A stretch of DNA of 64,000 bases from Nitrospirota bacterium (GTDB taxonomy: Bacteria > Nitrospirota > Thermodesulfovibrionia > Thermodesulfovibrionales > UBA9159): positions 839,118 through 903,117 of the forward strand of contig CAVOUE010000003.1 of assembly GCA_963699545.1 (NCBI GenBank), given 5' to 3'. This document shows, piece by piece, positions 13,952 to 33,060 of this stretch. Both the position numbers and the translations under genes were made by a program. Position 1 is the stretch's first letter; every line of letters begins with the position of its first letter. Below the pieces are notes generated by a model. That model did not search any database. It was given only the letters and a program-made list of their open reading frames with translations, and had not been told where the DNA came from.

Positions 13952-13993
13952 CGTGAGCGAATATATTATGAACAACTGCTTTCAGCAGTTTAA

Positions 13994-14163: not shown

Positions 14164-14202
14164 GGAAAACTAAATACCCTTCGAGGGAAGAGGAGGTTTT
14201 TT

Positions 14203-16206: not shown

Positions 16207-16238
16207 TTGCGGCTTCTGAACAGAAGGGTGTAGGTGAA

Positions 16239-17000: not shown

Positions 17001-17078
17001 CCCATTGGCGCGCCGGAGCGCGTTATCAGGTACAATAGGGTTATAAGGGGGATGCAGGCCCAGCCGGAAAGGAGTTCA

Positions 17079-17597
17079 ATGCGCAGGGGATACGTTCAGG
17101 TATACACAGGCAACGGCAAGGGAAAGACGACCGCGGCCCTTGGTCTCGCGCTGAGGGCTGCCGGAGCCGGCCTCAAGGTATTTATTGTGCAGTTCATCAA
17201 GAAGAGACGGTGCAGCGAACACAAAATGCTGGAACGGTTCGGGGGCCTGATAACCATACGGCAGCACGGCAGAGGCTTTCTTCTGAAGCGGAAGGCGAAC
17301 CGCTCGGATGTCAGTGAGGCACAGGCCGGCCTTGGCGAGGTGAGAGAGGCTATCGCATCAAGGGAATTCGATGTCGTGATACTGGACGAAGCGAATGTTG
17401 CGGTGAACTGCAATCTCCTCAGCGTCGACGACCTTATCGAACTGATGGAAGCGAAGCCGAAGAACATCGAAATGATCATCACCGGCAGATACGCCGATGA
17501 GAAGGTGATCCAAATGGCCGACCTTGTGACTGAAATGAAAGAGATCAAGCACTACCGCAAGAAAGGCGTGAAAGCCAGGGCAGGCATTGAATTCTAG
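17079..17597 (+). CDS. cobO: Cob(I)yrinic acid a,c-diamide adenosyltransferase (CobO/BtuR)
   Basis: VYTGNGKGKTTAALG, QFIK, ILDE, ITGR, ADLVTEM, GIEF. Confidence 0.95.
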   Translation: MRRGYVQVYTGNGKGKTTAALGLALRAAGAGLKVFIVQFIKKRRCSEHKMLERFGGLITIRQHGRGFLLKRKANRSDVSEAQAGLGEVREAIASREFDVVILDEANVAVNCNLLSVDDLIELMEAKPKNIEMIITGRYADEKVIQMADLVTEMKEIKHYRKKGVKARAGIEF

Positions 17598-17635
17598 GAA
17601 CGGAGTAGCGCTGTGCCCTTCTTCGCAGGTCCTCC

Positions 17636-18346
17636 ATGGATGAACGTCTTTCCAGGGCGATGAGCTATGTCGTAGGGATTGGGTACAAACCCTTTGACAA
17701 AAGGGGAAAAGAGATTATCATGAAGGCAGACATCATTCTCGCCTCTGAAAGGCTCTTTGATGTCTTTAGGAGGTATGAGGAATTCGAGCTGGTCAGGGAC
17801 AAAACAGAGGTGATCAATAACGTGGACGCCACGATGAATTTTCTCAGGTCTCATCTCTCGGGTCTTAAGTCTCATGCCGTCGTTCTCGCCTCGGGTGATC
17901 CCCTGTTCTGCGGTATCGGCAGAAGGATGGTGGAGGAGTTCGGGAAGGAAGCGGTGGAGATAATCCCCGACCTTTCGAGCGTCCAGCTCGCCTTTGCGAG
18001 GATAAAGGAGCCGTGGGACGATGCGCTCCTCATCAGCGTTCACCACGGTCCCGACGCCGAGGCGCGAAGGAAGCCGAAGTACGGGGTAAAGGATATTCCG
18101 TCCCTCCTTGCGAAGCACGAAAAGATCGCTGTGCTCACCGATAAGGGGAACAATCCGGCGGTGATCGCACGAGAGATAGTGTGCTCGTCGGCTATCAGCC
18201 GTCAGCGGTCGGCTATAAAAATATTTATATGCGAGAAACTGGGATATCCCGACGAACGTATCATTCAAGGAACGCCGGACGAGGTGGCGGCCATGGAGTT
18301 TTCAGAGCCGAATGTGGTCATATTGTTGAGGCGGCAGCAATCCTGA
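17636..18346 (+). CDS. cbiE: Cobalt-precorrin-7/precorrin-6Y C5-methyltransferase, stand-alone CbiE
   Basis: VVGIG, VLASGDPLFCGIG, SSVQLAFAR..W, VLTD, CEKLGYPDERI. Confidence 0.88.
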   Translation: MDERLSRAMSYVVGIGYKPFDKRGKEIIMKADIILASERLFDVFRRYEEFELVRDKTEVINNVDATMNFLRSHLSGLKSHAVVLASGDPLFCGIGRRMVEEFGKEAVEIIPDLSSVQLAFARIKEPWDDALLISVHHGPDAEARRKPKYGVKDIPSLLAKHEKIAVLTDKGNNPAVIAREIVCSSAISRQRSAIKIFICEKLGYPDERIIQGTPDEVAAMEFSEPNVVILLRRQQS

Positions 18347-18454
18347 TACGGAGGTGGGTAGTGCCGGAGGTCATGAGGCATGAACTCGGGGTGATAGCAC
18401 AACGACTCTCTGAGGTGACCCGGTCAGACCAGGAATGACAAAGCCGTCAGTCCT

Positions 18455-19296
18455 TCAGAAGGTTTTTTTTGCGGACCCTCTCTTTCTTCTTCGAACCGGG
18501 GTCGTATCTCCCTTTTTAAATAACTGGTTGTATGTCACCGGGTCATGCTTTTTCAAACAGTCGGGACATATGCCGTGGGTAAAGGAAGCATCGGAATGCT
18601 CCTGGATGTACATCTCGACCTTTTTCCAATAACCCCCGTCATCGCGTATCTTCTTGCACCACGCGCACATGGGAAGCAAACCGGTCAGCGTTTTGATCCT
18701 CGCCACCGCTTCCCGAAGTTGCAGGATCAGCATTTCTTTTCCCTGTTCGATCCGTTTGCGTTCGGCAATGTCCTGCCGGAGCTGGTCGTTCACCCGGCGG
18801 AGCTCGGCGGTGCGTTCCAATACAAGGTTCTCCAGGTGTTCGCGGTCTCTGTTCAGTTCTTCCTCCGCCTGCTTTCGCTCGGTAATATCGTGCCAGATAG
18901 TTTGAAAGACCTTTTGGCCTGACAGGTCCGTCACCGGGCAATGACAAACACATGTCGTATCTCCCCCGATTTGGTTCTGTGCCTCACTTCGAACTCTGCC
19001 CTCCCGTGACGCAATACTTCTCTGATGCTGGCCTGTATATCTTCAGGGCTCTGGAAAGGGTCGATGTCGGAAATGCTCAGCTTTTCGAATTCCTCCCGAG
19101 AGTAACCGAGCTGGCGATGGGCCGCTTCATTGAATTCAATCAACCTTCCATCGGTACTTATGATCAAAATGCCGTCAGGGGACTGCTCAAATATGGTGTG
19201 GTACCGGTGTTCCGTTTCGAGGAGTTTGGTGTCGGAATCGCCTCTTCCCCTCTTCCGTCCTATTCCCTTGTCCCTATGCTTTCTGTCCGATTCCAT
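18455..19296 (-). CDS. PAS-domain protein with coiled coil and C-terminal Cys motif domain (frameshift near 18935)
   Basis: PAS (IFEQSPDGI..FNEAAHRQLGYSREE..DITERK), then GLLPMCAWCKKIRDD..HGICPDC. Confidence 0.78.
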
Positions 19297-19497
19297 GTCG
19301 CAGTATGTCCGTCGAGTTCTCAGTCGAAGTCGTCTTCCGAGGAATTCGGCGGTAGCCGCCGAAAGAACCTCTACTTACATTGTCTCTTGCGCAAGCGTTC
19401 TTGTCAACTGCGGAGGAGGCAATAAAGTGTTCTATCGTTGCAGCTTTTCTCCTTCATTTCTGTGCTATCATAAAAGGAAAACGAAGGTGAAATAATC

Positions 19498-20091
19498 ATG
19501 TCAGAGAAAGAAAAACCGTTGCCAAAACCTCCGAAGACGCCCTTTGGAAGAAAGCGTTCTGAGGAAAGGGAAGAGGGCGCCCCGCTTATGGCTGACAGGA
19601 TGGCCGCAGCGATGGCAGAGGGAAAACTGGCAGAGTTCATGAAGGAGGAGATGCCCGATAATGACTACGCCAGGGCCCTTGCCTCGATGATGATGGGAAT
19701 TACCGGCATGATGCCGCCTGAGGCCTTTCCTCCCCGTTCCGGGGAAAGACCGGAAGAGTGTTCTGACAGGGCCGAAGACGTGAACCCGCCGGAGGTGATG
19801 CCTTCCGGCGTTCAGCCTCCGGCGGATGTGATGGATGCTGCTCACACAGGTGACGTAAAAGGCGTTATGGAGATGCTTGCCAGGGAACATGAGAAGAGGA
19901 ATCCGGGATCAGGATCGATCCCCGCGGAAAAGGAAGGAACGGATGATATGCCCGGACTCAGTGACGTTGAGAAGGAGACCCTGAACCAGCTCTTGAAGAT
20001 TGCATCTGAAAACAACGTGAGTGTGGACTGGATGGTGTTAAGGGCCCTCAGCCTCTACATCCGTGAGTATCACAACACAGGGCGGCTCTGA
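19498..20091 (+). CDS. Hypothetical protein
   Basis: 197-aa ORF; the C-terminus may be ribbon-helix-helix-like. Confidence 0.65.
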   Translation: MSEKEKPLPKPPKTPFGRKRSEEREEGAPLMADRMAAAMAEGKLAEFMKEEMPDNDYARALASMMMGITGMMPPEAFPPRSGERPEECSDRAEDVNPPEVMPSGVQPPADVMDAAHTGDVKGVMEMLAREHEKRNPGSGSIPAEKEGTDDMPGLSDVEKETLNQLLKIASENNVSVDWMVLRALSLYIREYHNTGRL

Positions 20092-20215
20092 GAATTCCGC
20101 CTCGATCCGTTACTTGATCACCGCCACTGGCCCAGTCAATCGTTTCGTTTTCAGAGTGTCATCCTTTCACGCCAACGGACATTCGGCTGCCGAGATCACA
20201 CATCGATCACAGTTT

Positions 20216-20587
20216 TCAATCGGTTCGGTCCCGATTGTGTTCGCCTCGTGCATCAGACTTTGAGTCGGGTGGCAAGTGATAGGCCACAAAGAATAACCCA
20301 AAGGATACTAAAATGGTAATACAGGCTACCGTCAATGCGAGTGATGTTCCACGCCATAGCCCGGCAAACCAATGACTAAGCTCATTCGCAAGCACGCTCA
20401 CCTTTCCGCCGTAGAGTTCCAGATCATGTACATACTTCTTGGAATGCTCAAATTCATAAACCAGATCGCTGTCTGAAGCATTCCCGGCTGTCAGATAAAT
20501 CAAGATGGCGCTTCCCAAACCAACCAGCAGGACAATAGCAGTAATGAGGTAAAGGCGTGTTTGCAGCTTTGTGATGTTCCACTTCAT
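20216..20587 (-). CDS. Small two-TM membrane protein
   Basis: Two hydrophobic segments flanking SKKYVHDLELYGGK. Confidence 0.65.
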   Translation of the reverse strand: MKWNITKLQTRLYLITAIVLLVGLGSAILIYLTAGNASDSDLVYEFEHSKKYVHDLELYGGKVSVLANELSHWFAGLWRGTSLALTVACITILVSFGLFFVAYHLPPDSKSDARGEHNRDRTD

Positions 20588-20898
20588 GTTGTGCCTATTC
20601 TTACTCCCTCGTCAAACCCGGTTGCCCGGGAGCTTTACGGTTCCCTTATGCCGACATTGTGTCACGGTTTTTCATTGTACCATACATCACGGTTCATCAC
20701 ATCACAGGTACAGACCAGGGAAGAAAGGAAAGACCGGCCCTCATTCCGTCATCACGGGCAATTACTCGTCAGCCCTGGCCAGGGACATTGTCAGACGGGA
20801 CCTGACAGGTTCGCTGGAAGGCGGGGTGTGGAAAAAGGCCTGCCAGTTCTGTTATCATAGAGTTGCTAAACATCTAACATGTGAGGTGAGGTTCGAAT

Positions 20899-21078
20899 AT
20901 GGCATTCATAAAAAGTGTAATGAATTTCTTTTCTCTTGAAGAGGAGAAGCGGCCGGTGCAGGACCTGGGAAGAAATGAGCCCTGCTGGTGCGGAAGCAGC
21001 AGAAAATACAAGCACTGCCATCTCCACGAAGACCAGAAGAGGCTGAAGAATTACTCGGCAGACTGCCTGAATGGGTGA
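20899..21078 (+). CDS. Small SEC-C (Zn-binding) motif protein, 59 aa, absent from the ORF track
   Basis: [71 protein letters not shown]. Confidence 0.8.
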
Positions 21079-21125
21079 AAGACCCGTTGAGTTGAGTTCA
21101 ACTCAGGGATAAGGACAAAGCGTTC

Positions 21126-21959
21126 TCAAAAGCCTAGGTCCTTCAACTTTTCCAGGCTGTTTTCGTCATAGTGCTCTCTTTTCCACTTGAAAGGGACGTC
21201 GATGATCTCCCCGGGTGTTTTTATGAAATAGAGAGCGCTAAAAGCCTCAGCCAGTACCGCCCTCTGCTGGGCGATATTGAACGGTTCTCCCAGCGGATGT
21301 CCGAAAGGCCACCTGAGATAAATCGTCCTGGGCGGTTTCACCTTCTCGGTATATTCCCTGACTATGGATATCCCAATAGTGGGGATGCCCATTCCCTCGA
21401 TCACTCTCTGTATCAGTCCGACGGCCTGATTGCACGTGCCTCAGCCCGGCGTCATTAACACCACATCAACACCCTCTGCCTTGAGGCGTTTGGCAACCTT
21501 CGGGGCGGTATCGGCGACGAGGGTCTGGAGCCGGGGACCCAGTATGTGGCCCATGAATCCGTAATGGGTATGTGATAGTGTGCCGATGATCCCTTCGCCT
21601 TGAAACTCCCTGAGTCTTTCAAGCGGGAACACGATATTCATATCCCTGTCTGCATCGCCATGATCATAATAGTCGTGCGTGATCATGAGGTCGTTCGGCG
21701 GTCTTGTGCCATCGATCACCCTGAAGGTGGCATCTCCGTTGGGATCTCTCATGTCAAAAGGCGTTTGATCCTTCTGATGCACTCCGGCAGTAGTGACCAG
21801 CGCCACCGAACATTTACGCAGGGGTTTACTCACCGGTGTCCAGGGGATCTCCTTTGATTCCGCGGGACGGTATGAAGCGATAAAGAGCTCTGCGAGGAGG
21901 GGGAAACGGGTAAGGACCTTTGCCAGGAGCCTGTTCTTTAATCGTGAAATCTCTGTCAC
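21126..21959 (-). CDS. GrdB/PrdB-related reductase selenoprotein (Sec at TGA 21441-21443)
   Basis: The two listed ORFs are in frame across TPG-TGA-GTC (UxxC); family motifs VALVTTAGVH, HDYYD, NIVFP and CNQAVGLIQR..E..GIPT..PPR...PFGHPLG. Confidence 0.88.
21412..21430 (-). promoter_or_regulatory. Candidate bacterial SECIS
   Basis: ATCAG-GCCGTCGGA-CTGAT stem-loop starting 11 nt after the UGA, with G in the apical loop. Confidence 0.6.
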
Positions 21960-21984
21960 CGGCAGCCACGGGACATGGGCATTT

Positions 21985-22191
21985 CTACCATGTCAATGAG
22001 AGGAGATGCGCCACGTCCGACTGTAAACGGTTGAACTTGCATTTGACCACCATGCACTGCTCCGAACGATAGCACGTGCCGCACTTAATGATCACATGGA
22101 CACTTATGCCCGTACTTTCGCGGTGAGGGCAGGGGATATGGAGTTTCCCGGTGTCTTCAGAATAACGCTTGTCCAGATAGGCGCTTTTCAT
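21985..22191 (-). CDS. Small Cys-rich hypothetical protein
   Basis: 68 aa with CPH and CxxC..C..C, directly upstream of the selenoprotein gene. Confidence 0.5.
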   Translation of the reverse strand: MKSAYLDKRYSEDTGKLHIPCPHRESTGISVHVIIKCGTCYRSEQCMVVKCKFNRLQSDVAHLLSLTW

Positions 22192-22426
22192 GGTTTATTA
22201 TACACCGAATGGGGTCTTATTAAGGACGTCCAAATTTCCACGTCCCGTCACATTTCCGGCGCGGAAGAAGGGTATATCCGGTGTTCTAAGAATGAAAAGA
22301 CGACTTGACCTGTCATCGGCAAACGCAAGAATTCTTCGATGGAAGCGTACAAACATGGAACAGTTTCCCCTTTCTGTCCTCTTCACCATTCATGCTATGC
22401 TATAGTGAAAGAAAAATAGAGGGAGT

Positions 22427-23386
22427 GTGGGGTTTGACGAAATTATGAAACTCAGGATAGGGCATCTCTCCACCTTTTACCATACTTCAATCTTGTTAAT
22501 GGCAAAGGGAGACGCCGGCAAAAAACTTGGAGTCGATGTCGAGTGGGAGTTGTTCGGCACAGGTCCCGCAATTGTGGAAGCCTTTGAAAGAGGCAAGCTT
22601 GACCTCGCTTACATTGGATTGCCGCCGGCCATCATAGGGATAAGCAGGGGAATGAGCATTATATGCATTGCGGGGGGACATATAGAAGGAACAGTAATTG
22701 CCGGGGAAAGAGAGTTGATCAGCTATCAGGAAGAAGAAGACATACGGATTATCCTCGATCAACTCACAGGAAAGTGCATAGGAGTGCCGGGGAAGGGTTC
22801 GATACACGACGTGATCATAAGGGAATGCCTTGAAAGATTGAATCTCACGGAAGGGATAGAGATAGTGAATTTTCAGTGGGCTGACCAGGTGACAGAGGCG
22901 GTGGCGAAGGGAGAAGTCTCCGCTGCAGTCGGCACTCCTGCCTTGGCCGTGGCAGTTGAACGCTATGCCGCTGGTAAGATCCTCTATCCCGCGTCAAGGC
23001 TCTGGCCCCACAACCCCAGCTACGGAATTGTCGTAGACAAAAGGTTTTTGACCGAGGAGAGGGAAACGGTCGAGCGCTTTCTCGTTCTCCATGAAGAGGC
23101 GACTTCCCTGATCAGGAACAGGCCGGGAGAGGTGGCGAGGACGATCGCCCGTTATGTCGGGTTCATCGATGAAGAGTTTGTGATGGATACCCTGAAGGTG
23201 TCTCCAAAATACTGTGCCCAGATCACCGACGAGTATATTTCTTCGACGATGGAATTTGTGAAGGCGCTGAAACGGCTGGGATACATACGCAGAGACATCG
23301 GTTCCGACGGCATTTTTGATACCCTTTTGATCAGACGACTTCATCCTGAGAAAGACCACTACGGAGACGGCATCGCAGAGGCTTAA
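22427..23386 (+). CDS. SsuA/NrtA/THI5-like periplasmic-binding-fold protein without signal peptide
   Basis: LRIGHLSTFYH, FGTGPAIVEAF..LDLAYIGLPP, GVPGKGSIHDV; no hydrophobic N-terminus. Confidence 0.8.
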   Translation: MGFDEIMKLRIGHLSTFYHTSILLMAKGDAGKKLGVDVEWELFGTGPAIVEAFERGKLDLAYIGLPPAIIGISRGMSIICIAGGHIEGTVIAGERELISYQEEEDIRIILDQLTGKCIGVPGKGSIHDVIIRECLERLNLTEGIEIVNFQWADQVTEAVAKGEVSAAVGTPALAVAVERYAAGKILYPASRLWPHNPSYGIVVDKRFLTEERETVERFLVLHEEATSLIRNRPGEVARTIARYVGFIDEEFVMDTLKVSPKYCAQITDEYISSTMEFVKALKRLGYIRRDIGSDGIFDTLLIRRLHPEKDHYGDGIAEA

Positions 23387-24525
23387 CCGCGCATGAGGAA
23401 CTCTTGCACCTGTCTTTTTATCTCCAGATGGTGCAGGGGAATATTCGGCACATCCTTGTTTCCCGGAACAGCGAGGACATGGACAAATCTGACCCCCTCG
23501 TCTGAACTTTTCATTACATCCGTCAACCCTTTCTCATCAGCCACTTTGATGGTATTCTTTATCCCGAATCCCGTCGCCACAGCCGCAAGGTCAACACATG
23601 ATTTTGTAAGTGTGGGCTGGTTTCCTGTTGAGCCGTAGGAACCGTTATCTATTGCAAAGACGGTGAGATTTCCGGGCGAGAAATGTGCAGCAGTAGCAAG
23701 GCTCCCAGGATTCATCAAGAGGCTCCCGTCACCATCTATTGCAATAACGTGCTTTCTTGATGTCAGCGCGATCCCGAGTCCGATGGGGGTAACCATGCCC
23801 ATGCTGCCCAGCATATAAAAGTTGGACGGCTGGTGTTTGATATGGAAGAGTTCTTTTGAAGGGGCGCCAAGATTGCATACAACCACTTTGGAATCAAGAT
23901 AAGGGGCTATGATATTCAGAATCTCGAAGCGTGTCAGCCGCGGCGAATGCGTCCGGTGCCCGATAGGTGCTTCATATTCAATTCTTTCTTTGGTGCCTTT
24001 TGTTCTGACTGAGGACTGCTGAACGCTGACTTCCGATTTTTCCCATATCGCGGGGCTGAGGAGAAATGCGTGGATCCGGTTCTTCTTGTAAACGTCTTCA
24101 AGTCTCTTCCCTACAAGCCCGAAATCCTTCCGTGTGTTGACGGCTGTATGGTGTATGCCGGCGCCATCTAAAATACCAGGGAGTTTCTTGCCCATGGGTA
24201 TCTGGGCTCCGATTTTCTCTTTATATATGCCTCTGCGGCTGACAAACAAGGCGAGGGGCAGCCGGTAAAATCCTGTGAGGGAAAGTAATGCATTGATCAT
24301 ATTCCCGACGCCTGAACTCTGGACGAACATTGCGGGCCGTCTGCCGGATAATGCAGCGCCTGCAGTGATGCCGACACCCTCTTCTTCCCGGGTCAAAGGC
24401 ACATGAAAAAACTCTTCGCTCACCCGTTCGAGAAGGACTTTGATCTTCTCGCAGGGAAGGGAAGAAATAAAGTCGACCCCGTTCTTCTTAAGCAGTGCTA
24501 TCAGCTCTTCTTCAGGGTATTGCAT
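23383..24525 (-). CDS. comDE: Fused sulfopyruvate decarboxylase alpha+beta
   Basis: ComD half (SLPC, LTREEEGVGITAGA, QSSGVGNMINAL, RGIYKEKIGAQIPMG) fused to ComE half (NLGAPSKEL, NFYMLGSMG, TPP motif DGDGSLLMN, DNGSYGSTGNQPT). Confidence 0.88.
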   Translation of the reverse strand: MQYPEEELIALLKKNGVDFISSLPCEKIKVLLERVSEEFFHVPLTREEEGVGITAGAALSGRRPAMFVQSSGVGNMINALLSLTGFYRLPLALFVSRRGIYKEKIGAQIPMGKKLPGILDGAGIHHTAVNTRKDFGLVGKRLEDVYKKNRIHAFLLSPAIWEKSEVSVQQSSVRTKGTKERIEYEAPIGHRTHSPRLTRFEILNIIAPYLDSKVVVCNLGAPSKELFHIKHQPSNFYMLGSMGMVTPIGLGIALTSRKHVIAIDGDGSLLMNPGSLATAAHFSPGNLTVFAIDNGSYGSTGNQPTLTKSCVDLAAVATGFGIKNTIKVADEKGLTDVMKSSDEGVRFVHVLAVPGNKDVPNIPLHHLEIKRQVQEFLMRG

Positions 24526-25757
24526 AGTAACCCCTCTATCTCCTTCTCCGAAATCTTTTTTGATATGGCAAGGGGCTCCACAGTATACATTTCCCTCTTC
24601 TGTTTCAGTCTCTTTTCGCCACCTCCGGTGATATTGAGTAATATCGTGTCGCTCTTCTGTACCGTGCCCGTGTGCACGGCATTTATGAGGGCTGCGGATG
24701 CAACCCCGGCTGCAGGTACGATATCTATCCCCTCCGCCCTTTCGAAGATCTCCATTGCAGAATACACCTCCTCATTTCTTATGCCATACATTTTTCCCCC
24801 TGTTGCCTTGAGGGCGTCATAGACGCCACCGCCGAGGGAATAGGCAGGATAGCGGGTCGAAAGAACCCTGGTGGTTATCTCTCCTATCAGTTCAGGTTTC
24901 AGATCCTCAGGAGAGAGGTTCCGGCTGCCTTTCTCCCACGCCCTGAGCATGGGAGCAAAAGGCAGGTTCTGAGCGAGGTGAAGGACCGGCAATTCAGTAC
25001 CAAATCTTCCGTCCCTTATAAACCTTTCCGCCATCTCCCATACCCCTATCGCTCCGGTACCGCTCCCCACGGCCTGGAAATAGTGGTCAGGAAGTCTCGC
25101 CATTACCGAGACAGCTTCAAGGAGTACCACTCCAAGACCATCTCTCTTTGCAATATTCTTCACCCCTCCCTCAAAGGGGATGCCGAGGGTTGAGGAGATT
25201 CTCTTTGCGACATCGATGGAGTCTGCGTAATCGCCGTCGCTTAACGCAAGGGTTGGTATCCCGGGAGAATTTTCGAGGCACCACATTTCCACAAGACACA
25301 TCCTCGGAACAACAATGACCACCGGAAAATCAGAGAGGACGGAGAGGTGGGAAAATGCCCTCGCGGTATTGCCAGCTGACGCCACGACGAGTCCATGGAC
25401 ACCGTTTTCTCTTGCGTTCTGGAGCACCACCGCTGCCTCAAATTCCTTGAAGGTGCACGTCTGAAGCGATGCCCCCTTTTCCGGCCAATAGCCATTAAAG
25501 GCTATGAAAAGGTTCTCGAGACCGAGCTGTTGAGAGAGACCTGTTGATCGGTAAACCAAAGGACCTGATTGTTCAAAGCGCGGGGTATGTACCGGGAGCC
25601 AGTTAAATCTCCAAATACCCCGGGTATCGCTTTCAGTAAAAGTGATATCGTTATATTCTGTTATGAGGAGCGAATCCTTGCAGTGTTCGCAAAAGGCACA
25701 GTACACATCCTCAAGCCTTTTCCCGCAATTCCTGCATCGTATCGAAAAATGGCTCAC
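24501..25757 (-). CDS. Cysteate synthase (PLP, threonine-synthase-like, MA3297 type)
   Basis: N-terminal CxxC..CxxC, FNGYWPEKGA..TCTFKEFEA, SAGNTARAF, EGGVKNIAKRDG, DHYFQAVGSGTG, QNLPFAPM, VLSTRYPAYS; overlaps comDE. Confidence 0.9.
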   Translation of the reverse strand: MSHFSIRCRNCGKRLEDVYCAFCEHCKDSLLITEYNDITFTESDTRGIWRFNWLPVHTPRFEQSGPLVYRSTGLSQQLGLENLFIAFNGYWPEKGASLQTCTFKEFEAAVVLQNARENGVHGLVVASAGNTARAFSHLSVLSDFPVVIVVPRMCLVEMWCLENSPGIPTLALSDGDYADSIDVAKRISSTLGIPFEGGVKNIAKRDGLGVVLLEAVSVMARLPDHYFQAVGSGTGAIGVWEMAERFIRDGRFGTELPVLHLAQNLPFAPMLRAWEKGSRNLSPEDLKPELIGEITTRVLSTRYPAYSLGGGVYDALKATGGKMYGIRNEEVYSAMEIFERAEGIDIVPAAGVASAALINAVHTGTVQKSDTILLNITGGGEKRLKQKREMYTVEPLAISKKISEKEIEGLLCNTLKKS

Positions 25758-25767
25758 ATTGCCTCCT

Positions 25768-26971
25768 TCAGATGAGGCTCCCCAACAATTCCATGATGTC
25801 GGTGATTACTACCTGCTTATCATGCCCCTGCATCGCTTCGTTTACCTTGGAATAGCATGCAGGACAGCTCAGGATAAGCCTGTCTGCCTTTTTCTCCACT
25901 GCCTCATCAATGGTCAGCCTTCCCATGGCGGTGGCATTTTCGGCGAAGACCTTTCTTGCTGCGCCGCCGGCGCCGCAGCATTGTGAATTGAGGCCGTGCC
26001 TTTCAAATTCGATGAGTTCAGCGCCGGGTATGCTTCTGAGGACGATCCTCGGCTCTTCAATCACCCCCACCCCTCTGCTCAGATAGCAGGGGTCGTGGTA
26101 GATTAAATTTTCTTTCAGCTCCTTCTTAATGACGAGTTTTCTTTTCTTCAGTGCATCGACGACAAATTGTGTAATATGCGCTATCTTGAAAGGGAGCGCC
26201 TGCCCATAAAATAGCGGCCAGTCCCTTGACATAATATTCACGCAGCATGGGCATGAACTTATGAGCAGTTTCACCCCCTTTGCCTTGTATGCATTCACGA
26301 GCCTCTTGGTAAGATCCTCAAGCATATCATGCTGCCCTGTGATGAAGAGAGGGAATCCGCAGCATACTTCTTCCTCCGGAGGAAGCATGGTGAATGGTTC
26401 GCCGATTGCGCCCAGCACAAGCACATCACCTTTCACCATGGGCTGGGCTTCATAGGCTCCGGTGCAGCCGGCGTAGTATGCGATCTCAGCTTTTTCAACG
26501 ATCTTGACCTCATCGGGAAACCAGGGGCTGTATCGCTCTTTGTCCGGCTTGTTATAGGGATTTCCCGTTCTCCTTTATCACCTTGGGAAGATTTGCCTGC
26601 GGACCGATCGGCCCGAGCCCCATGTCCACCATCTTTTTTCTCAGGAAAGGCCAGAGCCTTTGACTGAAGATCCCCACCTCGCAGGCCTCTCCGCAGGCCC
26701 CGCATGTGGTGCATTCAAAAACTGCCTTCGCGAACTCCTCAAGCAACTGTCTGCTTACTTCACCAGGACCGAAAAGGCGTGCCTTGAGCCCTTCCGTATT
26801 CTTGATAAAATCTCGATACATCCTGATTTTTTCAGGTGGCGAGATCTTCCGATTTTCCGTGACTTCCTGAACGGGACACCATTTGAGACACTCACTGCAT
26901 CGCGTGCATGCATCGAGTTCTATAAGATGAAGCTTCGTCAGCCCTTCGATAAAGGATTGTTGTTTACCCAT
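25768..26971 (-). CDS. hdrD: Heterodisulfide reductase subunit D-like Fe-S protein (frameshift near 26560)
   Basis: Two CxxCxxCxxxC motifs (ELDACTRCSECLKWCP; CTTCGACGEAC), then two CCG domains (YAGC..CCG..SCPCC; HDPCYL..CCGAGG..SCPAC). Confidence 0.85.
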
Positions 26972-27773
26972 GGGTAAACTCCCAGAGACTTGATTTTCTT
27001 CTCGATGCTTCTGCTGTAGTAATCTGGGCGGTGAACATATGGAACTGCTTGGAAAAGGGGAGATAGGCGATAAAGGTAAAGGCAGAAAAGGCATGAAATG
27101 CCCAGAAAATCCTGTAGAGAAGTCGGGATGAAGGATAGCTTCGGGTCACGGGACTGAACATCTGAGAAAAGAGAGCGCCTACAGGCGACCAGTCCATCAG
27201 CGGCGGATGAAACCGTGCGAGACGGATTCCCTCAACGCAGAATCCGCTGAGGATTATGAGAAACATCAGAATAAGGACAAAAGCATCGTCCCAGCTCGAG
27301 ACAACAATATTCCTGGAAAATACATATCGCCTCAGGATATAAAACAAGAGACTTATTAAGGCCAGGCCACCTGCGATGTCCAGTACGAGGGAATAATAGA
27401 GATAGAAATGTCCTCTCAATATATGGAGACCAAAGTCATAATCAATGGCAACGAGAAGCGTCCCAATAAAGAGGATAATAAATCCCCAGTAGACGAATAT
27501 AAGCATGACTCCTCTGGGTCTGCTTTTCTCCATGACCCTCCGGGCAAAGAGACATTCCATCGAGAAGAGATAGAGGAGGCTTATCCTTATAAGCCCCCAT
27601 ATCGATTTCTTAGGGATATAGTCAGAAGGGTCATCCCTGCCTTTAAGCCAGATGGATACTTTCGACCATGAACCTATGAGAAAGATCGCGACCGCTATTG
27701 CGGCTGCCCCGTAAAAGAGTATCCTCAGGAGTGAAGGGATATCCCCGAAAACTAATCTTGTCGCTTCTCCCAT
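26964..27773 (-). CDS. NarI/HdrE-like membrane cytochrome b anchor
   Basis: 5-6 TM segments; ILSGFCVEGIR, WSPVG, FHAFSAF..IAYLPFSKQFHMF; its stop overlaps the hdrD start. Confidence 0.75.
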   Translation of the reverse strand: MGEATRLVFGDIPSLLRILFYGAAAIAVAIFLIGSWSKVSIWLKGRDDPSDYIPKKSIWGLIRISLLYLFSMECLFARRVMEKSRPRGVMLIFVYWGFIILFIGTLLVAIDYDFGLHILRGHFYLYYSLVLDIAGGLALISLLFYILRRYVFSRNIVVSSWDDAFVLILMFLIILSGFCVEGIRLARFHPPLMDWSPVGALFSQMFSPVTRSYPSSRLLYRIFWAFHAFSAFTFIAYLPFSKQFHMFTAQITTAEASRRKSSLWEFTHG

Positions 27774-27811
27774 GTGCTTTCTCCTCTCTCATGAACGAAT
27801 TGATCGTCTGC

Positions 27812-28156
27812 TTATTCCTTTTCGCTGCTCTTGCTTATCTTTCTGCTCTCCAGAAATGTGACGCTCACATCTTTGGGGACAGCAAAGCCTGCCTCCACCT
27901 CCATGGCCTTGAGGATGCCGCTGGGCACAGGACAGGTCACATGTTTCAGGTGCTTCGATGCCGAACGGTAGACGGGATTATCGAGAAACCTTGTGAATAC
28001 CGCCATCATATCGAGGGCAGCGATCTCATCAGCCATGTTTTTCACCATCTCGCATTCTGTCTCAAGGGAGATCAGGATTTTTTTGTCCTTGTCCCTCTCG
28101 GCAGTTACGGTCGTTGAGAATCCGCACACCCCTGAATGGATAAGCACCTTTGTCAT
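27812..28156 (-). CDS. Conserved small Cys/His protein (DUF6951-like)
   Basis: GVCGF..C..HVTCPVPSGILKAMEVEAG. Confidence 0.7.
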   Translation of the reverse strand: MTKVLIHSGVCGFSTTVTAERDKDKKILISLETECEMVKNMADEIAALDMMAVFTRFLDNPVYRSASKHLKHVTCPVPSGILKAMEVEAGFAVPKDVSVTFLESRKISKSSEKE

Positions 28157-28198
28157 TCTTCACTCCTTTTTATCGACGCGCAGAGCCCCGTCACGCCC

Positions 28199-29007
28199 TC
28201 AGACCTCGGAAAGTTGATGCACATGGGTGAACATGCCGTTCACGCTCCTTGTCTTTTCCCTCTCCCCGGCAAGGAACAGGAGTATCTCCTTTCTTATGGA
28301 ATTCAGTTCAGGGCTTGTCCTGTCCCTGGGATGGGGAATATCCACCGTAATTACCTTCCCGACCTCTGCCGGGCGTGAGGTGAGACAGATGATCTCATCC
28401 CCGAGGAATACCGCCTCTTCCACGTTATGGGTCACAAAGACCACGGTCTTCTTCGCCTTCGCCCATATCTGAAGAAGAGCCGTTTGCATGTAATTCCTCG
28501 TCTGGCAGTCCAGTGAGACAAAGGGTTCGTCCATGAGAAGGACCTTCGGTTCCACCACCAGTGCCATGGCCATGGCCACCTTCTGTTTCATACCCCCGGA
28601 GAGCTCCTTTGGATAAAAGTCTCCCGAAGTCCTGGAGTTCTACCAGTTCCAGGCCGGCAAGGGCCTTCTGTTCTCCGCTGCTCTTTAGGGATGCCTGCGA
28701 CCTCAAGGCCGAACTCAACGTTTCTTATCACGGTCCGCCACGGCAGGAGGGCCGGCTCCTGGAAGATATATCCGACCTCCCTCACCGGTTCGGCAATCTC
28801 CTTGTCCCCCAGGAGGATCTTTCCCCTGTCGGGCCTTTCAAGCCCCGAGATTATTCTCAACAGTGTCGTTTTGCCGCACCCGCTCGGACCGATGATGCAG
28901 ACAAATCTCCCCTCTGGCACAGTGAACGACACATCCGTAATCGTATCGATCCGTTCACCCTCTGAGGCGTTGAAGGCTTTATGGAGATCAATCACTTTCA
29001 GGTCCAT
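28199..29007 (-). CDS. Sulfonate/nitrate/taurine-type ABC ATPase, frameshifted near 28600-28670
   Basis: GPSGCGKTT, FQEPALLPWRTV, ELSGGMKQK, LMDEPF, FVTHNVEEA. Confidence 0.88.
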
Positions 29008-29011
29008 AGGG

Positions 29012-29779
29012 TCATCTCCACCTGAGGACCCTGTCTTCGATCTTCCTTATGGCGAGGTCCATTGTATAGCCGATCCCTCCGATCACCGCCATACCCGCGA
29101 TGATCTGATCGGGCCGCTGAATATCTCTTGCAGTCATGATCATATACCCGAGGCCATATCCGCTCCTTACCCCTGTGAATTCTGCGGCAACAAGGGTCAT
29201 CCATCCGATTCCCAGGGCGATGCGTATCCCCGTGATGATGGAGGGCATTGCCCCCGGCGTGAGGACCTTCATAAAGAGGACTCCCCTCTTTGCGCCGAGG
29301 ATGATGGACGACTCAATAAGCCTTTTATTGATGGACAAAACCCCTCCGATGGTATTCAGGAGGATGGGGAAGAAGGCACCGAGGAAGATGATGAAGGAAG
29401 AGGCTTTGTCCCCGATGCCGAACCAGAGAATTGCAATGGGAACCCATGCAAGGGGAGGTACGGGCCGTATCATCTCAACAAAGGGGGTGAGGTAATCCCT
29501 CGCTTTCGCCCAGTACCCCATCATCATGCCGAGGGGCAGGGCGGTAACAAAAGCTATGGCCACCCCGCTCAACACTCTTTTCAGGCTCGAGATGCAGTGG
29601 CCGGTAAGGGTATATCCTGGAGGAAGGCCCTCCGTAGTCAGTTCTGTGAACCCATGAAGTATCGTCACCGGAGACGGCAGCCTGTTGCCGGGGATGATGC
29701 CGGAGGAAGAGAGTATCTGCCACACGACCACAACCCCAAAGACCGGGAGGTACCTTAAGGACCTATATGCGCGGCGCAA
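29012..29779 (-). CDS. Sulfonate/taurine-type ABC permease
   Basis: RPVPPLAWVP..LWFGIG, WMTLVAAE..GLGYMI. Confidence 0.92.
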   Translation of the reverse strand: MRRAYRSLRYLPVFGVVVVWQILSSSGIIPGNRLPSPVTILHGFTELTTEGLPPGYTLTGHCISSLKRVLSGVAIAFVTALPLGMMMGYWAKARDYLTPFVEMIRPVPPLAWVPIAILWFGIGDKASSFIIFLGAFFPILLNTIGGVLSINKRLIESSIILGAKRGVLFMKVLTPGAMPSIITGIRIALGIGWMTLVAAEFTGVRSGYGLGYMIMTARDIQRPDQIIAGMAVIGGIGYTMDLAIRKIEDRVLRWR

Positions 29780-29826
29780 TCTTCTTTCTCTCCCTCTACA
29801 CGTTTTAAAGGAAAGCCCGTGGAACG

Positions 29827-30783
29827 TTATTTCGTGAGATCGTTCACTACCTTCATGTCCAGGTATTCCCGGACAAAGGCATCCACGTCCATGGGCTTCA
29901 CATATCCGAACTTCACAAGATATTTCACGTATTCCTTTACATCGCCTTCCTTAGCAAGATAGTGGTAGGAGATGTGTCTGATGGCCTCCCGTACCGTTGC
30001 CTCGTCCATCCCGGTATATTTTATCCCGATGCGGAGGGCCTCGCCGGGGTTTTTCCTGATGTACTCGGTGGCTTTCACGTGGGCCCTTACAAAACGCTTG
30101 ACCGTCTCCGGATTATCCCGGAGGAAGGCGTTATCCACCGCAACAACACAGCAGGGATGGTCCTTCCATATCATGCCTGAAGAGACCAGGACCTTTCCGA
30201 TGCCCATGTTCACCGCCTTTGACGGATGGGGTTCCCACGCGATGAAAGCATCTATCTGTTTCGAACCAAGAGCGACAATCATTTCAGGCGGCTTAATCAC
30301 GATGATGTTCACCTTCCTGGGATCGACCCCTGCCCCCTCCAGCGCCTTTCTGAGAAGAAAGTCCTGAACACTCGAATATCCCGGGATGGCAACGGTCCTC
30401 CCCTCGAGGTCTTTCACCTCTCGTATGGATGCATCCTTACCCACCACGACGGAGGAGCCCTCCGCATTGGCGAGGGCAACCGCCTTTATGGCGGCGGACC
30501 TGTTCGCAAGTCCCGTGGCGCTGGGGGCAACACCAAGGTATCCCATATCGAGGCTTTTTGAGGCAAAGCCGATCATTTCTTCAGGGCCGGCATTGAAGAT
30601 GCCGGCAACTTCAACATCGACCCCTTCCTCTTTGAAAAAGCCCTTGTCAATGGCGACCCATGCCGCGAGGTGGTGGAGGTCGTTCCGCAGATAACCGATA
30701 CGGACCGTCTTGGACGCTGCCAGGGATATCAGCGCACTCACAAGCATCAAGACAAGTAAGACCCCCAAAACAATCCTTTTCAT
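29827..30783 (-). CDS. Sulfonate/nitrate-type ABC substrate-binding protein
   Basis: Signal peptide, VRIGYL, FNAGPE, DAFIAWEP, HPCCVV. Confidence 0.9.
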   Translation of the reverse strand: MKRIVLGVLLVLMLVSALISLAASKTVRIGYLRNDLHHLAAWVAIDKGFFKEEGVDVEVAGIFNAGPEEMIGFASKSLDMGYLGVAPSATGLANRSAAIKAVALANAEGSSVVVGKDASIREVKDLEGRTVAIPGYSSVQDFLLRKALEGAGVDPRKVNIIVIKPPEMIVALGSKQIDAFIAWEPHPSKAVNMGIGKVLVSSGMIWKDHPCCVVAVDNAFLRDNPETVKRFVRAHVKATEYIRKNPGEALRIGIKYTGMDEATVREAIRHISYHYLAKEGDVKEYVKYLVKFGYVKPMDVDAFVREYLDMKVVNDLTK

Positions 30784-30866
30784 GTACTCTCTCCTCTTCA
30801 ATACAGGTCGCGGACTTTCGGCGGAAAGCATCCTTCTTTCTCTTCCCCGAGTCCTGCCACTGATTT

Positions 30867-30875
30867 ATTATACCA
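30867..30875 (-). promoter_or_regulatory. Candidate extended -10 promoter
   Basis: TGGTATAAT on the minus strand in the gap before the ABC binding-protein gene; no clear -35. Confidence 0.45.
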
Positions 30876-30883
30876 CTGACATC

Positions 30884-32857
30884 CTACGCCTTTATTTCCA
30901 CCTTGCTCCCAGACTTTTCGAGGAGTTCCTTCAGGTTCGGGAACTTGTCCTTCATATGGGGGATATGCATTGCCTGCATGAATTCCTTCTCAAAAGCAGG
31001 GTCAGTGGCGATTTCAAGAAATTCCACCCACCGCGCCCTGTCACCGGCTTCCTGTCTCTTGCCCCTGTTGAGGAGGGCCATCCTCGCGCCGTCCCCCGCC
31101 GCATTGCCCACGGCATATACCTTGTCGATGGGACAATCGGGGAACATCCCTAGGGTCATGGAAGCTTCCCTGTCGATGTGGCTCCCGAAGGCGCCTGCAA
31201 GGACGACCCTGTCAAGCTTTGTGATCCCCAGCTTCTTCATCATCAGCTTCGCTCCGGTGTAGAGCGCGCCCTTAGCCAGTTGGAGCGCCCTCACATCCCC
31301 CTGAGTGACGGTGATGTCAGTTCCGATGGAGGTCTCTTCAGCCCAGGCGAGGACGTACTCCGGTTTTCCGTCAACGTCCTTCCGGACCCTCGGGGTATCA
31401 AGCCCCATCATGAATCTCCCTGACTTGTCGATGATCCCCGCCTTGAACATCTCAGCCACCACTCCGATGATCCCTGAACCGCATAACCCCTTCGCGTTCA
31501 CCTTCTCGATCTGGGTGTGCCAGTCCGCCTTGCCGATCACTTTGTACAACGGCTCTTTCGTGACGGGGTCGATCTGGACCTTCTCGATGGCCCCGGGTGC
31601 GGCCCTCATGCCGAATTTTATCTGGGCTCCTTCAAAGGCAGGGCCTGTGGCGCAGGAGGTGGAGAAGACCTTGTTCCTGTTGCCGAGGAGGAGTTCACCG
31701 TTTGTGCCGATATCGATGATCAGCACCATCTCGTCCTGATTATACGGCTCCTCGGCGATGAGTACGCCTACGTTGTCCGCACCCACGAAACCTGCCTCGA
31801 TGGGAAGCACATGGATATAGGCTGCGGGGTTGATCCTTAATCCGAGGTCCCGCGCTTTGATGTCCAGTGAGCTCTGCACGGCCGGAATGAACGGTGAGCG
31901 TCCTATATACTCGGGATTGAAGCCGAGGAATATGTGGTGCATGGCGGTATTGAAAACGATGGTGAGGTCATCGATCGCGAAGCCTGGATTCGGTCCGTCC
32001 TCCTTAATCTCTGTTACTACCTTTTCTATGATCTCGTTCAGGCCACCTATGATCGCCTTCTGCATGGTTTCGAGGCCTGTCGGATTGCTCATTGCATACG
32101 TTATTCGGGACATAACGTCCTCACCGTAGGGCACCTGGGGGTTCATCATCGACTCGGTATTCATAACCTTGCCGATAGTGAGATCGGAGAGATAGCCAAC
32201 GCACGTCGTGGTTCCGACGTCTACCGCAAGGCCATAGCATGCCTCCACAAAACCGGGCTCCACCTTTATGATCTCCTTGTCCATCCAGACCGTGACCGTG
32301 GCTTTCCATTGCCCCTTCCTCAGCACATCCTGAAGATCTCTCAGCACCATGAAGTCAAAGGTGAGGTTCTTGAGACCGTAGTCATTCTCAAGGAATTTCA
32401 ATACCCTTTCGTAGTCCCCTGTGGTCATGTCATGGAGCGTGGGGGGGGCGAGTTCCACGTTATATTTCTTCACCGCAGGGTCCAGGGTTATGGTAAGCTC
32501 CTTTGCGGCCTTCCTCACCACCTGTTTCCCGGCCCTCGACCGTTCGGGGACAAAGACCTTTACATCACCGTATACCTCCGCTGTGCAGGCAAGCCGGACC
32601 CCCGGGCCGTCTTCAGGCTTTATATGTTTTTTTTCGTCTTCTGTGAGGTCAGAGAGATGGTCCATGCCGGACTCCATTCCGTCTTTCTCAAAATATCCTT
32701 CCTCGATCCTCACCTTGCACTTTCCGCAGACCTTCTTGTTGCCGCAGAGGGCCTCGATATCAACACCCAGAGACTGGGCGGCCTCGAGGAGGGTCTTGCC
32801 TTCTTCGACCTCGCCCCGCCTTCCTGACGGCTGAAATATCACCCTGTATTTTTTCAT
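30884..32857 (-). CDS. RACo-type ASKHA ATPase, reductive activator of corrinoid proteins
   Basis: Intact paralogue of 3779-5722 with 2Fe-2S N-terminus, DVGTTT, GEDVMSRI, DIGTNGE, GPAFEG, GNAAGDGA. Confidence 0.93.
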   Translation of the reverse strand: MKKYRVIFQPSGRRGEVEEGKTLLEAAQSLGVDIEALCGNKKVCGKCKVRIEEGYFEKDGMESGMDHLSDLTEDEKKHIKPEDGPGVRLACTAEVYGDVKVFVPERSRAGKQVVRKAAKELTITLDPAVKKYNVELAPPTLHDMTTGDYERVLKFLENDYGLKNLTFDFMVLRDLQDVLRKGQWKATVTVWMDKEIIKVEPGFVEACYGLAVDVGTTTCVGYLSDLTIGKVMNTESMMNPQVPYGEDVMSRITYAMSNPTGLETMQKAIIGGLNEIIEKVVTEIKEDGPNPGFAIDDLTIVFNTAMHHIFLGFNPEYIGRSPFIPAVQSSLDIKARDLGLRINPAAYIHVLPIEAGFVGADNVGVLIAEEPYNQDEMVLIIDIGTNGELLLGNRNKVFSTSCATGPAFEGAQIKFGMRAAPGAIEKVQIDPVTKEPLYKVIGKADWHTQIEKVNAKGLCGSGIIGVVAEMFKAGIIDKSGRFMMGLDTPRVRKDVDGKPEYVLAWAEETSIGTDITVTQGDVRALQLAKGALYTGAKLMMKKLGITKLDRVVLAGAFGSHIDREASMTLGMFPDCPIDKVYAVGNAAGDGARMALLNRGKRQEAGDRARWVEFLEIATDPAFEKEFMQAMHIPHMKDKFPNLKELLEKSGSKVEIKA

Positions 32858-33060
32858 CTCATTTCCTCCGAATGTATAATAATTAACAGATATGTATTAC
32901 GTCTTCTGCAATGAAAAACTCCCCCTTTGGAAAGGGTCGGTATGACCCGGTTACGAGGGAATGAAAGGGAATGTTTCGATCATGCAATTTCCCCTAACCC
33001 CTTACCCTGGCCTCGGATTCTCCGGACGAAAAAGAGGGGTGATCCCTGCTCATTGAGAGG

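Follow-up and report, generated by a model that had tools for sequence, protein, structure and literature searches.

Cysteate synthase and fused ComDE genes close a conserved corrinoid methyltransferase and HdrDE-like operon in a Nitrospirota bacterium

In a stretch of 64,000 nucleotides from a Nitrospirota bacterium (contig CAVOUE010000003.1 of assembly GCA_963699545.1, hereafter the window), a gene for cysteate synthase and a gene for a fused sulfopyruvate decarboxylase (ComDE) form the end of a conserved operon of corrinoid methyltransferases and a reductase resembling the heterodisulfide reductase HdrDE. The pair is predicted to lead to sulfoacetaldehyde, and a thiol of the coenzyme M (CoM) type may be made from it and used by the enzymes of the operon. 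Convergent with ComDE lies a gene for a leaderless protein of TauA/SsuA fold, a new observation and a candidate third member of the synthase-ComDE module. The source is a metagenome-assembled genome of 3.04 Mb in 13 contigs (86.9% complete, 5.1% contamination) which encodes DsrA (530 bits); the host is a DsrA-bearing, sulfate-reducer-like Nitrospirota bacterium. As a cofactor, CoM is generally assigned to archaea that metabolise methane or alkanes and to a small number of aerobic bacteria that oxidise alkenes.

The original prediction, made from the DNA letters alone, described a methanogen-type cysteate synthase whose gene overlaps by 25 nt a second one encoding ComD and ComE in a single chain of 380 amino acids, and our analysis confirmed both open reading frames (ORFs) on the minus strand. 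The synthase gene (24501-25757, minus strand) starts with GTG, 5 nt downstream of GGAGG, and encodes a 418-residue protein of pyridoxal phosphate fold type II (PF00291, residues 99-378, 100.6 bits). It reached 480.4 bits with TIGR03844, the cysteate synthase equivalog (EC 2.5.1.76; cut-off 324.9), while six threonine synthase models gave at most 87.2 bits, each below its own cut-off (303 for the best model), and the ThrC-like protein of the same genome fell outside all 100 synthase rows in a phylogenetic tree. Among ten representatives looked up, the two named are a Methanomassiliicoccus protein (about 45% identical) and one of a Phycisphaerae bacterium (43%). By family the product is a cysteate synthase, predicted to form L-cysteate from O-phosphoserine and sulfite. 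The ComDE gene (23383-24525, minus strand) begins with an ATG inside the 3' end of the synthase gene (overlap 24501-24525) and encodes a thiamine-diphosphate enzyme (PF02776 and PF02775). Its residues 5-161 are covered by the ComD model TIGR03845 (178.6 bits, cut-off 147.95) and residues 199-375 by the ComE model TIGR03846 (221.9 bits, cut-off 221.5), and the GDGS...DN motif (G265, D266, G267, S268, D293, N294) was invariant in 14 ComDE sequences. Locus L073 was left out of this alignment; its 714-residue "ComDE fusion" is artificial and stems from a stretch of masked bases. An identity as phosphonopyruvate decarboxylase was not supported: TIGR03297 stayed below its cut-off (199.9 against 312.5 bits) and the genome has no match over the cut-off for the partner enzyme PEP mutase (best 123.4 against 319.55 bits).

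The operon context of the pair, and the conserved partner gene downstream on the opposite strand, were not part of the original prediction. From 38520 down to 23383 (about 15 kb) all genes of the block lie on the minus strand, with gaps of at most 203 nt between 38173 and 23383. The order, 5' first, is a small ORF, MtaA2, an AhpD-like protein, MtrH, MtaA1, a corrinoid protein, an Fe-S protein, RACo, an SsuABC-type transporter, DUF6951, a NarI/HdrE-type protein, an HdrD-like protein, the synthase and ComDE. MtaA1 (34424-35458, 344 residues) is an MtaA-type methylcobamide methyltransferase which passes two subfamily models, NF004889 "methylcobalamin:coenzyme M methyltransferase" (291.3 bits, cut-off 244) and TIGR01463 (262.4 bits, cut-off 235.4); it matches Methanosarcina mazei MtaA (4ay7) with 170 bits and keeps the LHICG and PGC motifs, which we take to hold the zinc ligands (His-x-Cys and a later Cys). 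MtaA2 (37106-38173) is a divergent methyltransferase of the MtaA/CmuA family (PF01208, 196 bits; TIGR01463, 195.9 bits against a cut-off of 235.4) that keeps both motifs and matches 4ay7 with 97.7 bits. Next to MtaA1 are the genes for the corrinoid (B12-binding) methyl-carrier protein (33726-34418, 230 residues; PF02310, PF02607; TIGR02370, 209.6 bits, cut-off 215.3) and for an MtrH-family methyltransferase (35503-36450, 315 residues; PF02007; NF002142, 338.5 bits, cut-off 287), which presumably transfers methyl groups from methyl-corrinoid to a pterin. A 657-residue reductive activase of corrinoid proteins of the RACo type (30884-32857; PF14574, PF17651, PF17650, PF00111) and a 222-residue Fe-S protein (33061-33729; PF13484; TIGR00276, 60.9 bits, and TIGR02486, 60.3 bits, both below cut-off) resembling the cluster domain of QueG and of reductive dehalogenases complete the methyl-transfer part.

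Between the transporter and the synthase lies the reductase-like part. The HdrD-like Fe-S/CCG-domain gene (25768-26971; PF13183 and two copies of PF02754) is split into ORFs 26552-27094 and 25768-26439 by a frameshift just upstream of 26552, and its neighbour encodes a 269-residue membrane subunit of NarI/HdrE/DsrM type (26964-27773; PF02665, 26.5 bits, cut-off 22.9; weak QmoC match), so that the domain set of an HdrDE-type enzyme is present with the HdrD-like copy of the window frameshifted. Other frameshift-split genes are the ATPase of the transporter in the window and, elsewhere in the genome, an aldehyde dehydrogenase and an aminotransferase (contig C3:487003-488465 and C3:465311-466127). 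Because the HdrD-like gene is a single ORF of 401-429 codons in 7/7 relatives examined, the splits, including that of the HdrD-like gene (25768-27094), suggest assembly indels rather than gene decay. An intact HdrD-like relative scored best with the TfrB model (185 bits, cut-off 385), ahead of DsrK (98 bits, cut-off 400); TfrB is a CoM/CoB-thiol-dependent enzyme. The transporter (28199-30831) comprises a binding protein with a signal sequence (29827-30831; TIGR01728, 191.4 bits, cut-off 163.5), a permease matching SaoP, TauC and SsuC models (29012-29779) and the split ATPase (28199-29007), whose halves match taurine and sulfonate ATPase models. The DUF6951 protein (27812-28156, 114 residues; PF22263, 117.6 bits) has invariant C11, C35, H72 and C75 in an alignment of 23 sequences. 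Its structural model (pLDDT 88.6) gave a best Foldseek E-value of about 0.04, and in a wide VIA search the top match was IscU (Z 6.2), level with unrelated alpha/beta domains and short of what the tool regards as meaningful; the likeness to sulfur acceptors of the IscU/SufE type is a weak lead, not above common-fold level. The AhpD/CMD-family protein (36543-37070, 175 residues; PF02627, 26.6 bits) carries a C98-x3-C102 motif.

To assess conservation, window proteins were compared by tblastn with 80 related loci, the best 80 of 443 synthase relatives in GTDB species genomes. Nitrospirota-type names (Nitrospirae, Thermodesulfovibrionales, Candidatus Sulfobium and others) stand on 78 of them, with synthases 66-80% identical; one of the other two is called "Bacterium" and one is labelled Betaproteobacteria. 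ComDE was found in 74/80 loci, the C-terminal and N-terminal parts of the HdrD-like protein in 75/80 and 71/80, DUF6951 in 63/80, RACo in 59/80, the Fe-S protein in 56/80, the corrinoid protein in 53/80, MtaA1 and MtaA2 in 50/80 each, MtrH in 49/80 and the AhpD-like protein in 41/80; most misses are contig ends. The gene order is constant, ComDE follows the synthase, and synteny ends downstream of ComDE. The transporter is found within the block only in the window, in locus L075 and in a second complete copy of the cluster in the same genome. This second copy (contig C1, approximately 14400-33800) runs from an OsmC-like gene through ComDE with 57-93% protein identity, has the transporter slightly displaced and an extra divergent Hdr-like pair, and may be a true paralogous duplicate or come from a co-binned relative.

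Furthermore, we followed the genes through one fixed set of 401 Nitrospirota genomes, in which presence of the synthase meant a score above the cut-off. The synthase was present in 68/401 genomes and an MtaA1 orthologue (at least 68% identity) in 72/401, namely in 63 of the 68 genomes with the synthase and 9 of the 333 without. The protein of TauA fold was present in 75/401 (66/68 with the synthase, 9/333 without). One of the five synthase genomes lacking an MtaA1 match, G042, holds the whole cluster with a partial MtaA1. The nine MtaA1-positive genomes without the synthase include three with broken synthase fragments, one with a ComE fragment at a contig end and one whose contig ends just after DUF6951, the rest being G227 and three members of one genus (G030, G039, G085). 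Four of the nine genomes with the TauA-fold protein and no synthase have broken synthase genes. In the five exception genomes, which hold the TauA-fold protein and/or MtaA1 and no synthase, ComE was above the cut-off in none; one has a contig-end fragment of ComE, one has ComA and one a contig ending 446 nt past DUF6951, and they reveal no alternative supply route. Presence and absence agreed exactly in patchy families (2/35 in family f3, 1/5 in f4, 4/7 in f9 and 3/9 in f16), and the co-occurring genes often sit on separate contigs.

The partner gene (22427-23386, plus strand), convergent with ComDE, encodes 319 residues matching PF13379 (63.7 bits) and below the cut-offs of the neighbouring families (TIGR01728, 107.7 against 163.5 bits; TIGR01729, 39.2 against 304.25 bits). 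The protein, which we call SBPw, has no hydrophobic N-terminus, and its start corresponds to that of the mature domain in the exported SsuA encoded in the window; no permease adjoins its gene on its strand. An AF2 model (pLDDT 90.3) has as best folds TauA (6ssy, TM 0.76-0.82) and SsuA, followed by the enzyme Thi5. Across 14 sequences down to 44% identity, C80, C263, H13, H19, H85, H127, H222, H306 and H311 are invariant; two cysteines and seven histidines exceed the needs of a plain binding protein. In many cases its gene lies 15-31 kb from the synthase or on a separate contig. Among the 120 matches listed, homologues are 62-100% identical, carry generic transporter names and, where hosts are named, come from Thermodesulfovibrionales or Nitrospiraceae, and protein-atlas feature matches led only to generic binding-protein clusters of Archaea and Nitrospirota. 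A complex prediction of ComDE with the TauA-fold protein, run without controls, gave a score of 0.00, which counts neither for nor against binding.

A further 80 diverse metagenome loci with non-Nitrospirota synthases were fetched. COG1900 adjoins the synthase or ComDE in 17/80 (the archaeal arrangement), the TauA-fold gene in 8/80 and both in none. One COG1900-type locus, L094, continues in the order COG1900, synthase, ComDE and then an SsuABC-type transporter adjoining ComDE. Five of the eight TauA-fold loci are distant: their synthases are 43-47% identical to that of the window, and the TauA-fold gene stands beside ComDE with no COG1900/MMP16 nearby. One of these, L142, is bacterial by its adjoining genes for DXS, ribosomal protein S2 and EF-Ts (ORFs judged by eye). 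In L102 and L122 the synthase, ComDE and the TauA-fold gene lie beside DsbA-like thioredoxins, AhpD-like, PNPOx-like and DUF6951 proteins or an HdrDE-like pair, with no methyltransferases within reach, and in L102 a class IV aminotransferase is directly upstream of the synthase. These neighbourhoods suggest that the product is more likely a thiol than an amine or alcohol.

In a quick maximum-likelihood tree of the synthases (101 rows: every fourth Nitrospirota locus, all usable metagenome loci and the ThrC-like protein of the genome as outgroup), 33 Nitrospirota rows, the window synthase among them, form a clade with full support. This clade is split by a long branch, likewise fully supported, from a set of 68 rows made up of COG1900-type loci, distant TauA-fold-type loci and a fully supported clade of 26 rows without ComDE. 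The TauA-fold-type loci do not group as one clade. The outgroup sits on a very long branch and the root is not reliable, so that no donor of the synthase can be named. The proposal that cysteate synthase alone could serve sulfonolipid synthesis, whereas pairing with ComDE points to a C2 sulfonate, fits the separate clade of ComDE-less loci. Nine of the fetched loci (L136, L139, L145, L146, L149, L150, L152, L153 and L158) carry near-identical synthases without ComDE in one tight clade at 55-58% G+C, four of them from records labelled human gut metagenome; this group is probably of the Bacteroidota sulfonolipid type.

Upstream, the block is preceded by a sigma-54-type -24/-12-like element, TGGCAT-N5-TTGC (38537-38551, minus strand), 17 nt ahead of the small ORF (38170-38520, 116 residues), which is the first gene after it. 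The window holds 4 such matches against 3.3 expected, a count no more than chance, and the argument rests on position: the same element is found upstream of MtaA2 in 8/13 related loci and in the C1 copy, and in 4/5 misses the available upstream sequence is shorter than the distance at which the element usually lies. A leader RNA in the approximately 360 nt between the element and MtaA2 was considered and rejected, as the region holds the small ORF instead; an Rfam search found no family inside the operon. The ORF is weakly receiver-like (PF00072, 14.2 bits, and 21.8 bits in L171, both below cut-off) and shows codon-like conservation in 8/9 aligned upstream regions. Further upstream are genes for an OsmC-like protein (38723-39280, minus strand, 185 residues; PF02566, 67.7 bits; NF041052, 73.2 bits, cut-off 95), with an 82% identical copy at the equivalent place on C1, and two divergent genes on the plus strand, for a CobW/COG0523-type GTPase (39468-40391; PF02492, 132.6 bits) and for a GAF-domain sigma-54 activator (40419-41615; PF00158, 235.3 bits; PF01590, 56.8 bits). 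The ORF at 39543-40559 (minus strand), of odd composition and without a family match, is an antisense shadow of the GTPase gene. Two more sigma-54-like elements on the plus strand (42177-42191 and 43572-43586) closely precede, respectively, a further gene for an OsmC-like protein (42201-42770) and a gene with a rhodanese domain (43787-45010); near the activator gene, these could form a small regulon with the operon, in a window whose match count is not above chance.

The chemical steps, and what the thiol is and does, we infer as follows. O-phosphoserine and sulfite would be joined to L-cysteate by the cysteate synthase, as in the archaeal "type 2" route, the phosphoserine-dependent CoM pathway for which Graham et al. 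2009 is cited. A general aminotransferase encoded elsewhere would then yield sulfopyruvate, and the fused ComDE would decarboxylate this to sulfoacetaldehyde; up to here the predicted pathway rests on curated equivalog models and established family enzymology. Sulfoacetaldehyde would most likely be converted to CoM (2-mercaptoethanesulfonate) or a very similar sulfonate thiol. The MtaA-type zinc methyltransferases would use this thiol as methyl acceptor or carrier, in concert with RACo, the MtrH-like enzyme and the corrinoid protein. The reduced state of the thiol would be maintained by the HdrDE-like membrane pair and by the proteins of AhpD-like and OsmC-like type, and its uptake would fall to the SsuABC-type transporter. 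The MtrH-family enzyme in the block suggests exchange with a pterin-bound methyl pool. A CoM-type thiol as product, used by the enzymes of the operon, is favoured by the gene order, its conservation and the co-occurrence across genomes, and also by MtaA1 passing a CoM-methyltransferase subfamily model and by the HdrD-like protein scoring best, if below cut-off, on TfrB; we give this reading an even chance.

It had also been predicted that no aminotransferase and no final enzyme of the MA3299/ComF type would lie in the window, and both statements held. Class I/II aminotransferases are absent from the window and have 11 matches elsewhere in the genome; for the final enzyme, the search of the whole genome found neither a PF01837 nor a TIGR03287 gene. 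The view that pairing with ComDE points to a C2 sulfonate gained support, and other C2-sulfonate routes did not, there being no Xsc above cut-off and no glycyl-radical enzyme in the genome. A lone gene of the ComA (phosphosulfolactate synthase) family was seen on contig C3 (491297-492154, 268.6 bits) with no ComB or ComC adjoining; upstream of it (neighbours judged by eye) are ORFs resembling a class III aminotransferase and, in split form, an aldehyde dehydrogenase.

The step from aldehyde to thiol might be a chemical or side reaction with the sulfide of these organisms. Sulfide is expected in the host because its genome has DsrA, and since a DsrAB organism makes sulfide, the missing COG1900/MMP16 is not fatal to the CoM reading. 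In Methanosarcina acetivorans, the effect of losing MMP16 is hidden by 0.4-1.5 mM sulfide, and CoM is reported to arise abiotically from sulfide and sulfoacetaldehyde (PMC11844431). Alternatively, the leaderless TauA-fold protein may carry out the step, possibly with DUF6951 and the Hdr-like pair. A bolder version holds that sulfate-reducing Nitrospirota and some other bacteria make genuine CoM by the phosphoserine route, with a new non-COG1900 CoM synthase built on the TauA-fold protein, to which the IscU-like DUF6951 and the Hdr-like pair might act as suppliers, and use it as methyl carrier in a corrinoid-dependent methylotrophy free of methyl-coenzyme M reductase (MCR) and coupled to sulfate reduction; in this full form we consider it unlikely.

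Several observations weigh against a CoM-type thiol serving the methyltransferases. In the genome (86.9% complete) COG1900 (PF01837) has 0 matches and the MMP16 model TIGR03287 reaches at best 27 bits against a cut-off of 363.95, and PF01837 occurs in 1/19 genomes of the family. The classic CoM user is missing, as no MCR/McrA was found in the genome; no search was made for other CoM-dependent enzymes. MtaA1 stays below the strict equivalogs MtaA (259.2 against 400 bits) and MtbA (209.9 against 600 bits), the HdrD-like protein is below every curated cut-off including all Hdr/Dsr equivalogs, and ComE exceeds its cut-off by 0.4 bits. Bacterial methyltransferases of the MtaA/URO-D family also take substrates other than CoM. 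With genomes that are related and hence not independent, counts of co-occurrence make the case look stronger than it is, and the genome of the window itself is 87% complete with 5% contamination and frameshifted genes. Loci L070 and L071 carry the synthase-ComDE pair without the block within 10 kb upstream. Moreover, the genus of G030, G039 and G085 has an MtaA1 orthologue and neither synthase nor TauA-fold protein; because the one locus fetched from it, in G039, shows the methyltransferase block without adjoining synthase or ComDE, the block need not depend on the pair.

This last genus, which retains MtaA1 without the synthase, also fits a different use of the same product, in which the thiol (CoM or similar) is mainly a redox buffer or a peroxide defence, the Hdr-like, AhpD-like, OsmC-like and DsbA-like proteins are its reductase/peroxidase set and the methyltransferases are independent. 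The methyltransferase-free loci L102 and L122, in which thiol-type genes accompany the synthase, ComDE and the TauA-fold gene, and the OsmC-like gene upstream of both copies in the genome agree with it, and PMC12713407 reportedly ties comDE overexpression and more CoM to oxidative-stress protection in methanogens. However, in Nitrospirota the MtaA1 orthologue tracks the synthase in 63/68 genomes and belongs to the same strand-continuous block, and MtaA1 passes the CoM-methyltransferase subfamily model; we consider a mainly protective role unlikely.

Sulfoacetaldehyde might also escape thiolation and become isethionate, taurine or sulfoacetate, as an osmolyte or building block bound by the TauA-fold protein. 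The genome has no known last-step enzyme, the TauA-fold protein is closest to taurine- and alkanesulfonate-binding proteins, and an SsuABC/TauABC-type transporter lies in the block. On the other hand, no dedicated taurine or isethionate enzyme was identified adjoining the genes, in an analysis that included no specific search for sulfoacetaldehyde reductases or taurine aminotransferases, and Xsc and glycyl-radical lyases were not found in the genome. Because the conserved neighbours in several lineages are thiol/disulfide and Fe-S proteins, we favour a thiol over taurine or isethionate and judge the non-thiol outcome somewhat less probable than the redox buffer.

Less probable again is that adjacency to the methyltransferase and Hdr-like genes reflects an inherited order without common function, the pair serving an unrelated need. 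The 80 close loci all come from one phylum at 66-80% identity, and L070 and L071 hold the pair in a housekeeping neighbourhood. Against mere inheritance stand the exact agreement of presence and absence in patchy families with genes often on different contigs, the distant lineages that rebuild part of the neighbourhood (AhpD-like, Hdr-like, DUF6951, transporter), and the overlapping or tightly spaced genes on one strand. Finally, supply of cysteate for capnine-type sulfonolipids, as in Bacteroidota, is very improbable here: ComDE-less synthase loci, presumably with a sulfonolipid role, do exist as a clade of 26 rows, but the window synthase belongs to a different fully supported clade, its gene overlaps that of ComDE, which consumes transaminated cysteate, and no acyltransferase was seen adjoining it.

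Apart from the operon, the organism appears rich in methyl-transfer systems. Further corrinoid methyltransferase sets lie at 2941-5495 of the window, on contig C3 (approximately 827000-835300) and on contigs C9 and C10; a second RACo (4068-5495) has a corrinoid protein match just upstream, and MtaA1 paralogues at 52-55% identity are found in the genome. Two cobalamin riboswitches were detected on the plus strand, at 6339-6519 (108.7 bits) and 13967-14173 (67.8 bits), the latter directly upstream of a TonB-dependent receptor gene (14203-16206). Cobamide genes lie near them: CobT-like (9880-10932), CobQ (12412-13932), CobA/BtuR (17052-17597) and a tetrapyrrole methylase (17636-18346). In addition, a PrdB/GrdB-family gene (21126-21959, minus strand; PrdB model 137 bits on the first part) has an in-frame TGA as its codon 173, within a PG-U-GTC motif, and, by read-through translation, probably encodes a selenoprotein of 277 residues.

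Should CoM prove to be the product, a "methanogen" cofactor would be at work, without methane production, in anaerobic bacteria that are common in metagenomes of groundwater, sediment and soil, and the reading of mtaA-, hdrD- and comDE-like genes in metagenomes would change. For the unsolved last step of CoM synthesis, the way to a second, independent solution would also be open, with the TauA-fold protein as a concrete candidate. A full-text literature search of main texts gave no account of cysteate synthase or ComDE in members of the Nitrospirota, nor of either next to genes for corrinoid methyltransferases in sulfate-reducing organisms. Sections of PMC11844431 list three routes of CoM biosynthesis, two archaeal and one bacterial; the parts of that paper and of PMC9457059 consulted treat the phosphoserine route as archaeal, and those of PMC4045070 mention the synthase-ComDE pair for a methanogen only.

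The closest known system is cs-comDE-MMP16 (MA3297-MA3299) of M. acetivorans, described in passages of PMC11844431 as the phosphoserine-dependent "type 2" CoM pathway, in which the same synthase equivalog is directly coupled to a fused ComDE. There, CoM starvation raises cs, comDE, a "CoM-specific ABC transporter" (ssuB/ssuC) and hdrABC together (same source), so that both sets include a sulfonate ABC transporter and a heterodisulfide-reductase-type enzyme, co-regulated in the archaeon and co-located here. Unlike M. acetivorans, the present host is a bacterium with no COG1900/MMP16 or MCR found and a synthase in a clade of its own, and the conserved third partner is the leaderless TauA-fold protein in place of MMP16. 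The methylation of CoM in methylotrophic Methanosarcina (MtaA/MtbA/MtsA, the corresponding corrinoid proteins, a RamA-type activase and HdrDE) is matched here by MtaA-family enzymes, an activase of RACo/RamA type, a corrinoid protein and a CCG protein that resembles HdrD and has a membrane partner of b-type; in contrast, there is no MCR to consume methyl-CoM, and the scores stay below the cut-offs of the strict MtaA/MtbA and Hdr/Dsr equivalogs. Xanthobacter autotrophicus Py2 (xcb genes) is, as the present host would be, a bacterium that makes CoM; according to sections of PMC9457059, however, its route starts from phosphoenolpyruvate via a ComA-type synthase, without cysteate synthase or ComDE, and serves aerobic alkene metabolism. 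The partner protein shares its predicted fold with the periplasmic binding proteins TauA/SsuA (6ssy, 3ksj, 2x26; Foldseek E 9e-19, TM 0.76-0.86) and has a weak sequence match to TauA (E 1.6e-4), but differs in lacking a signal sequence, in scoring below the SsuA cut-off, in its invariant Cys and His residues and in being tied to biosynthetic genes and not to a permease. Compared with these systems, the one described here has CoM precursor genes of archaeal type placed inside a bacterial operon of methyl-transfer and disulfide-reductase genes, and its conserved third partner is a different one.

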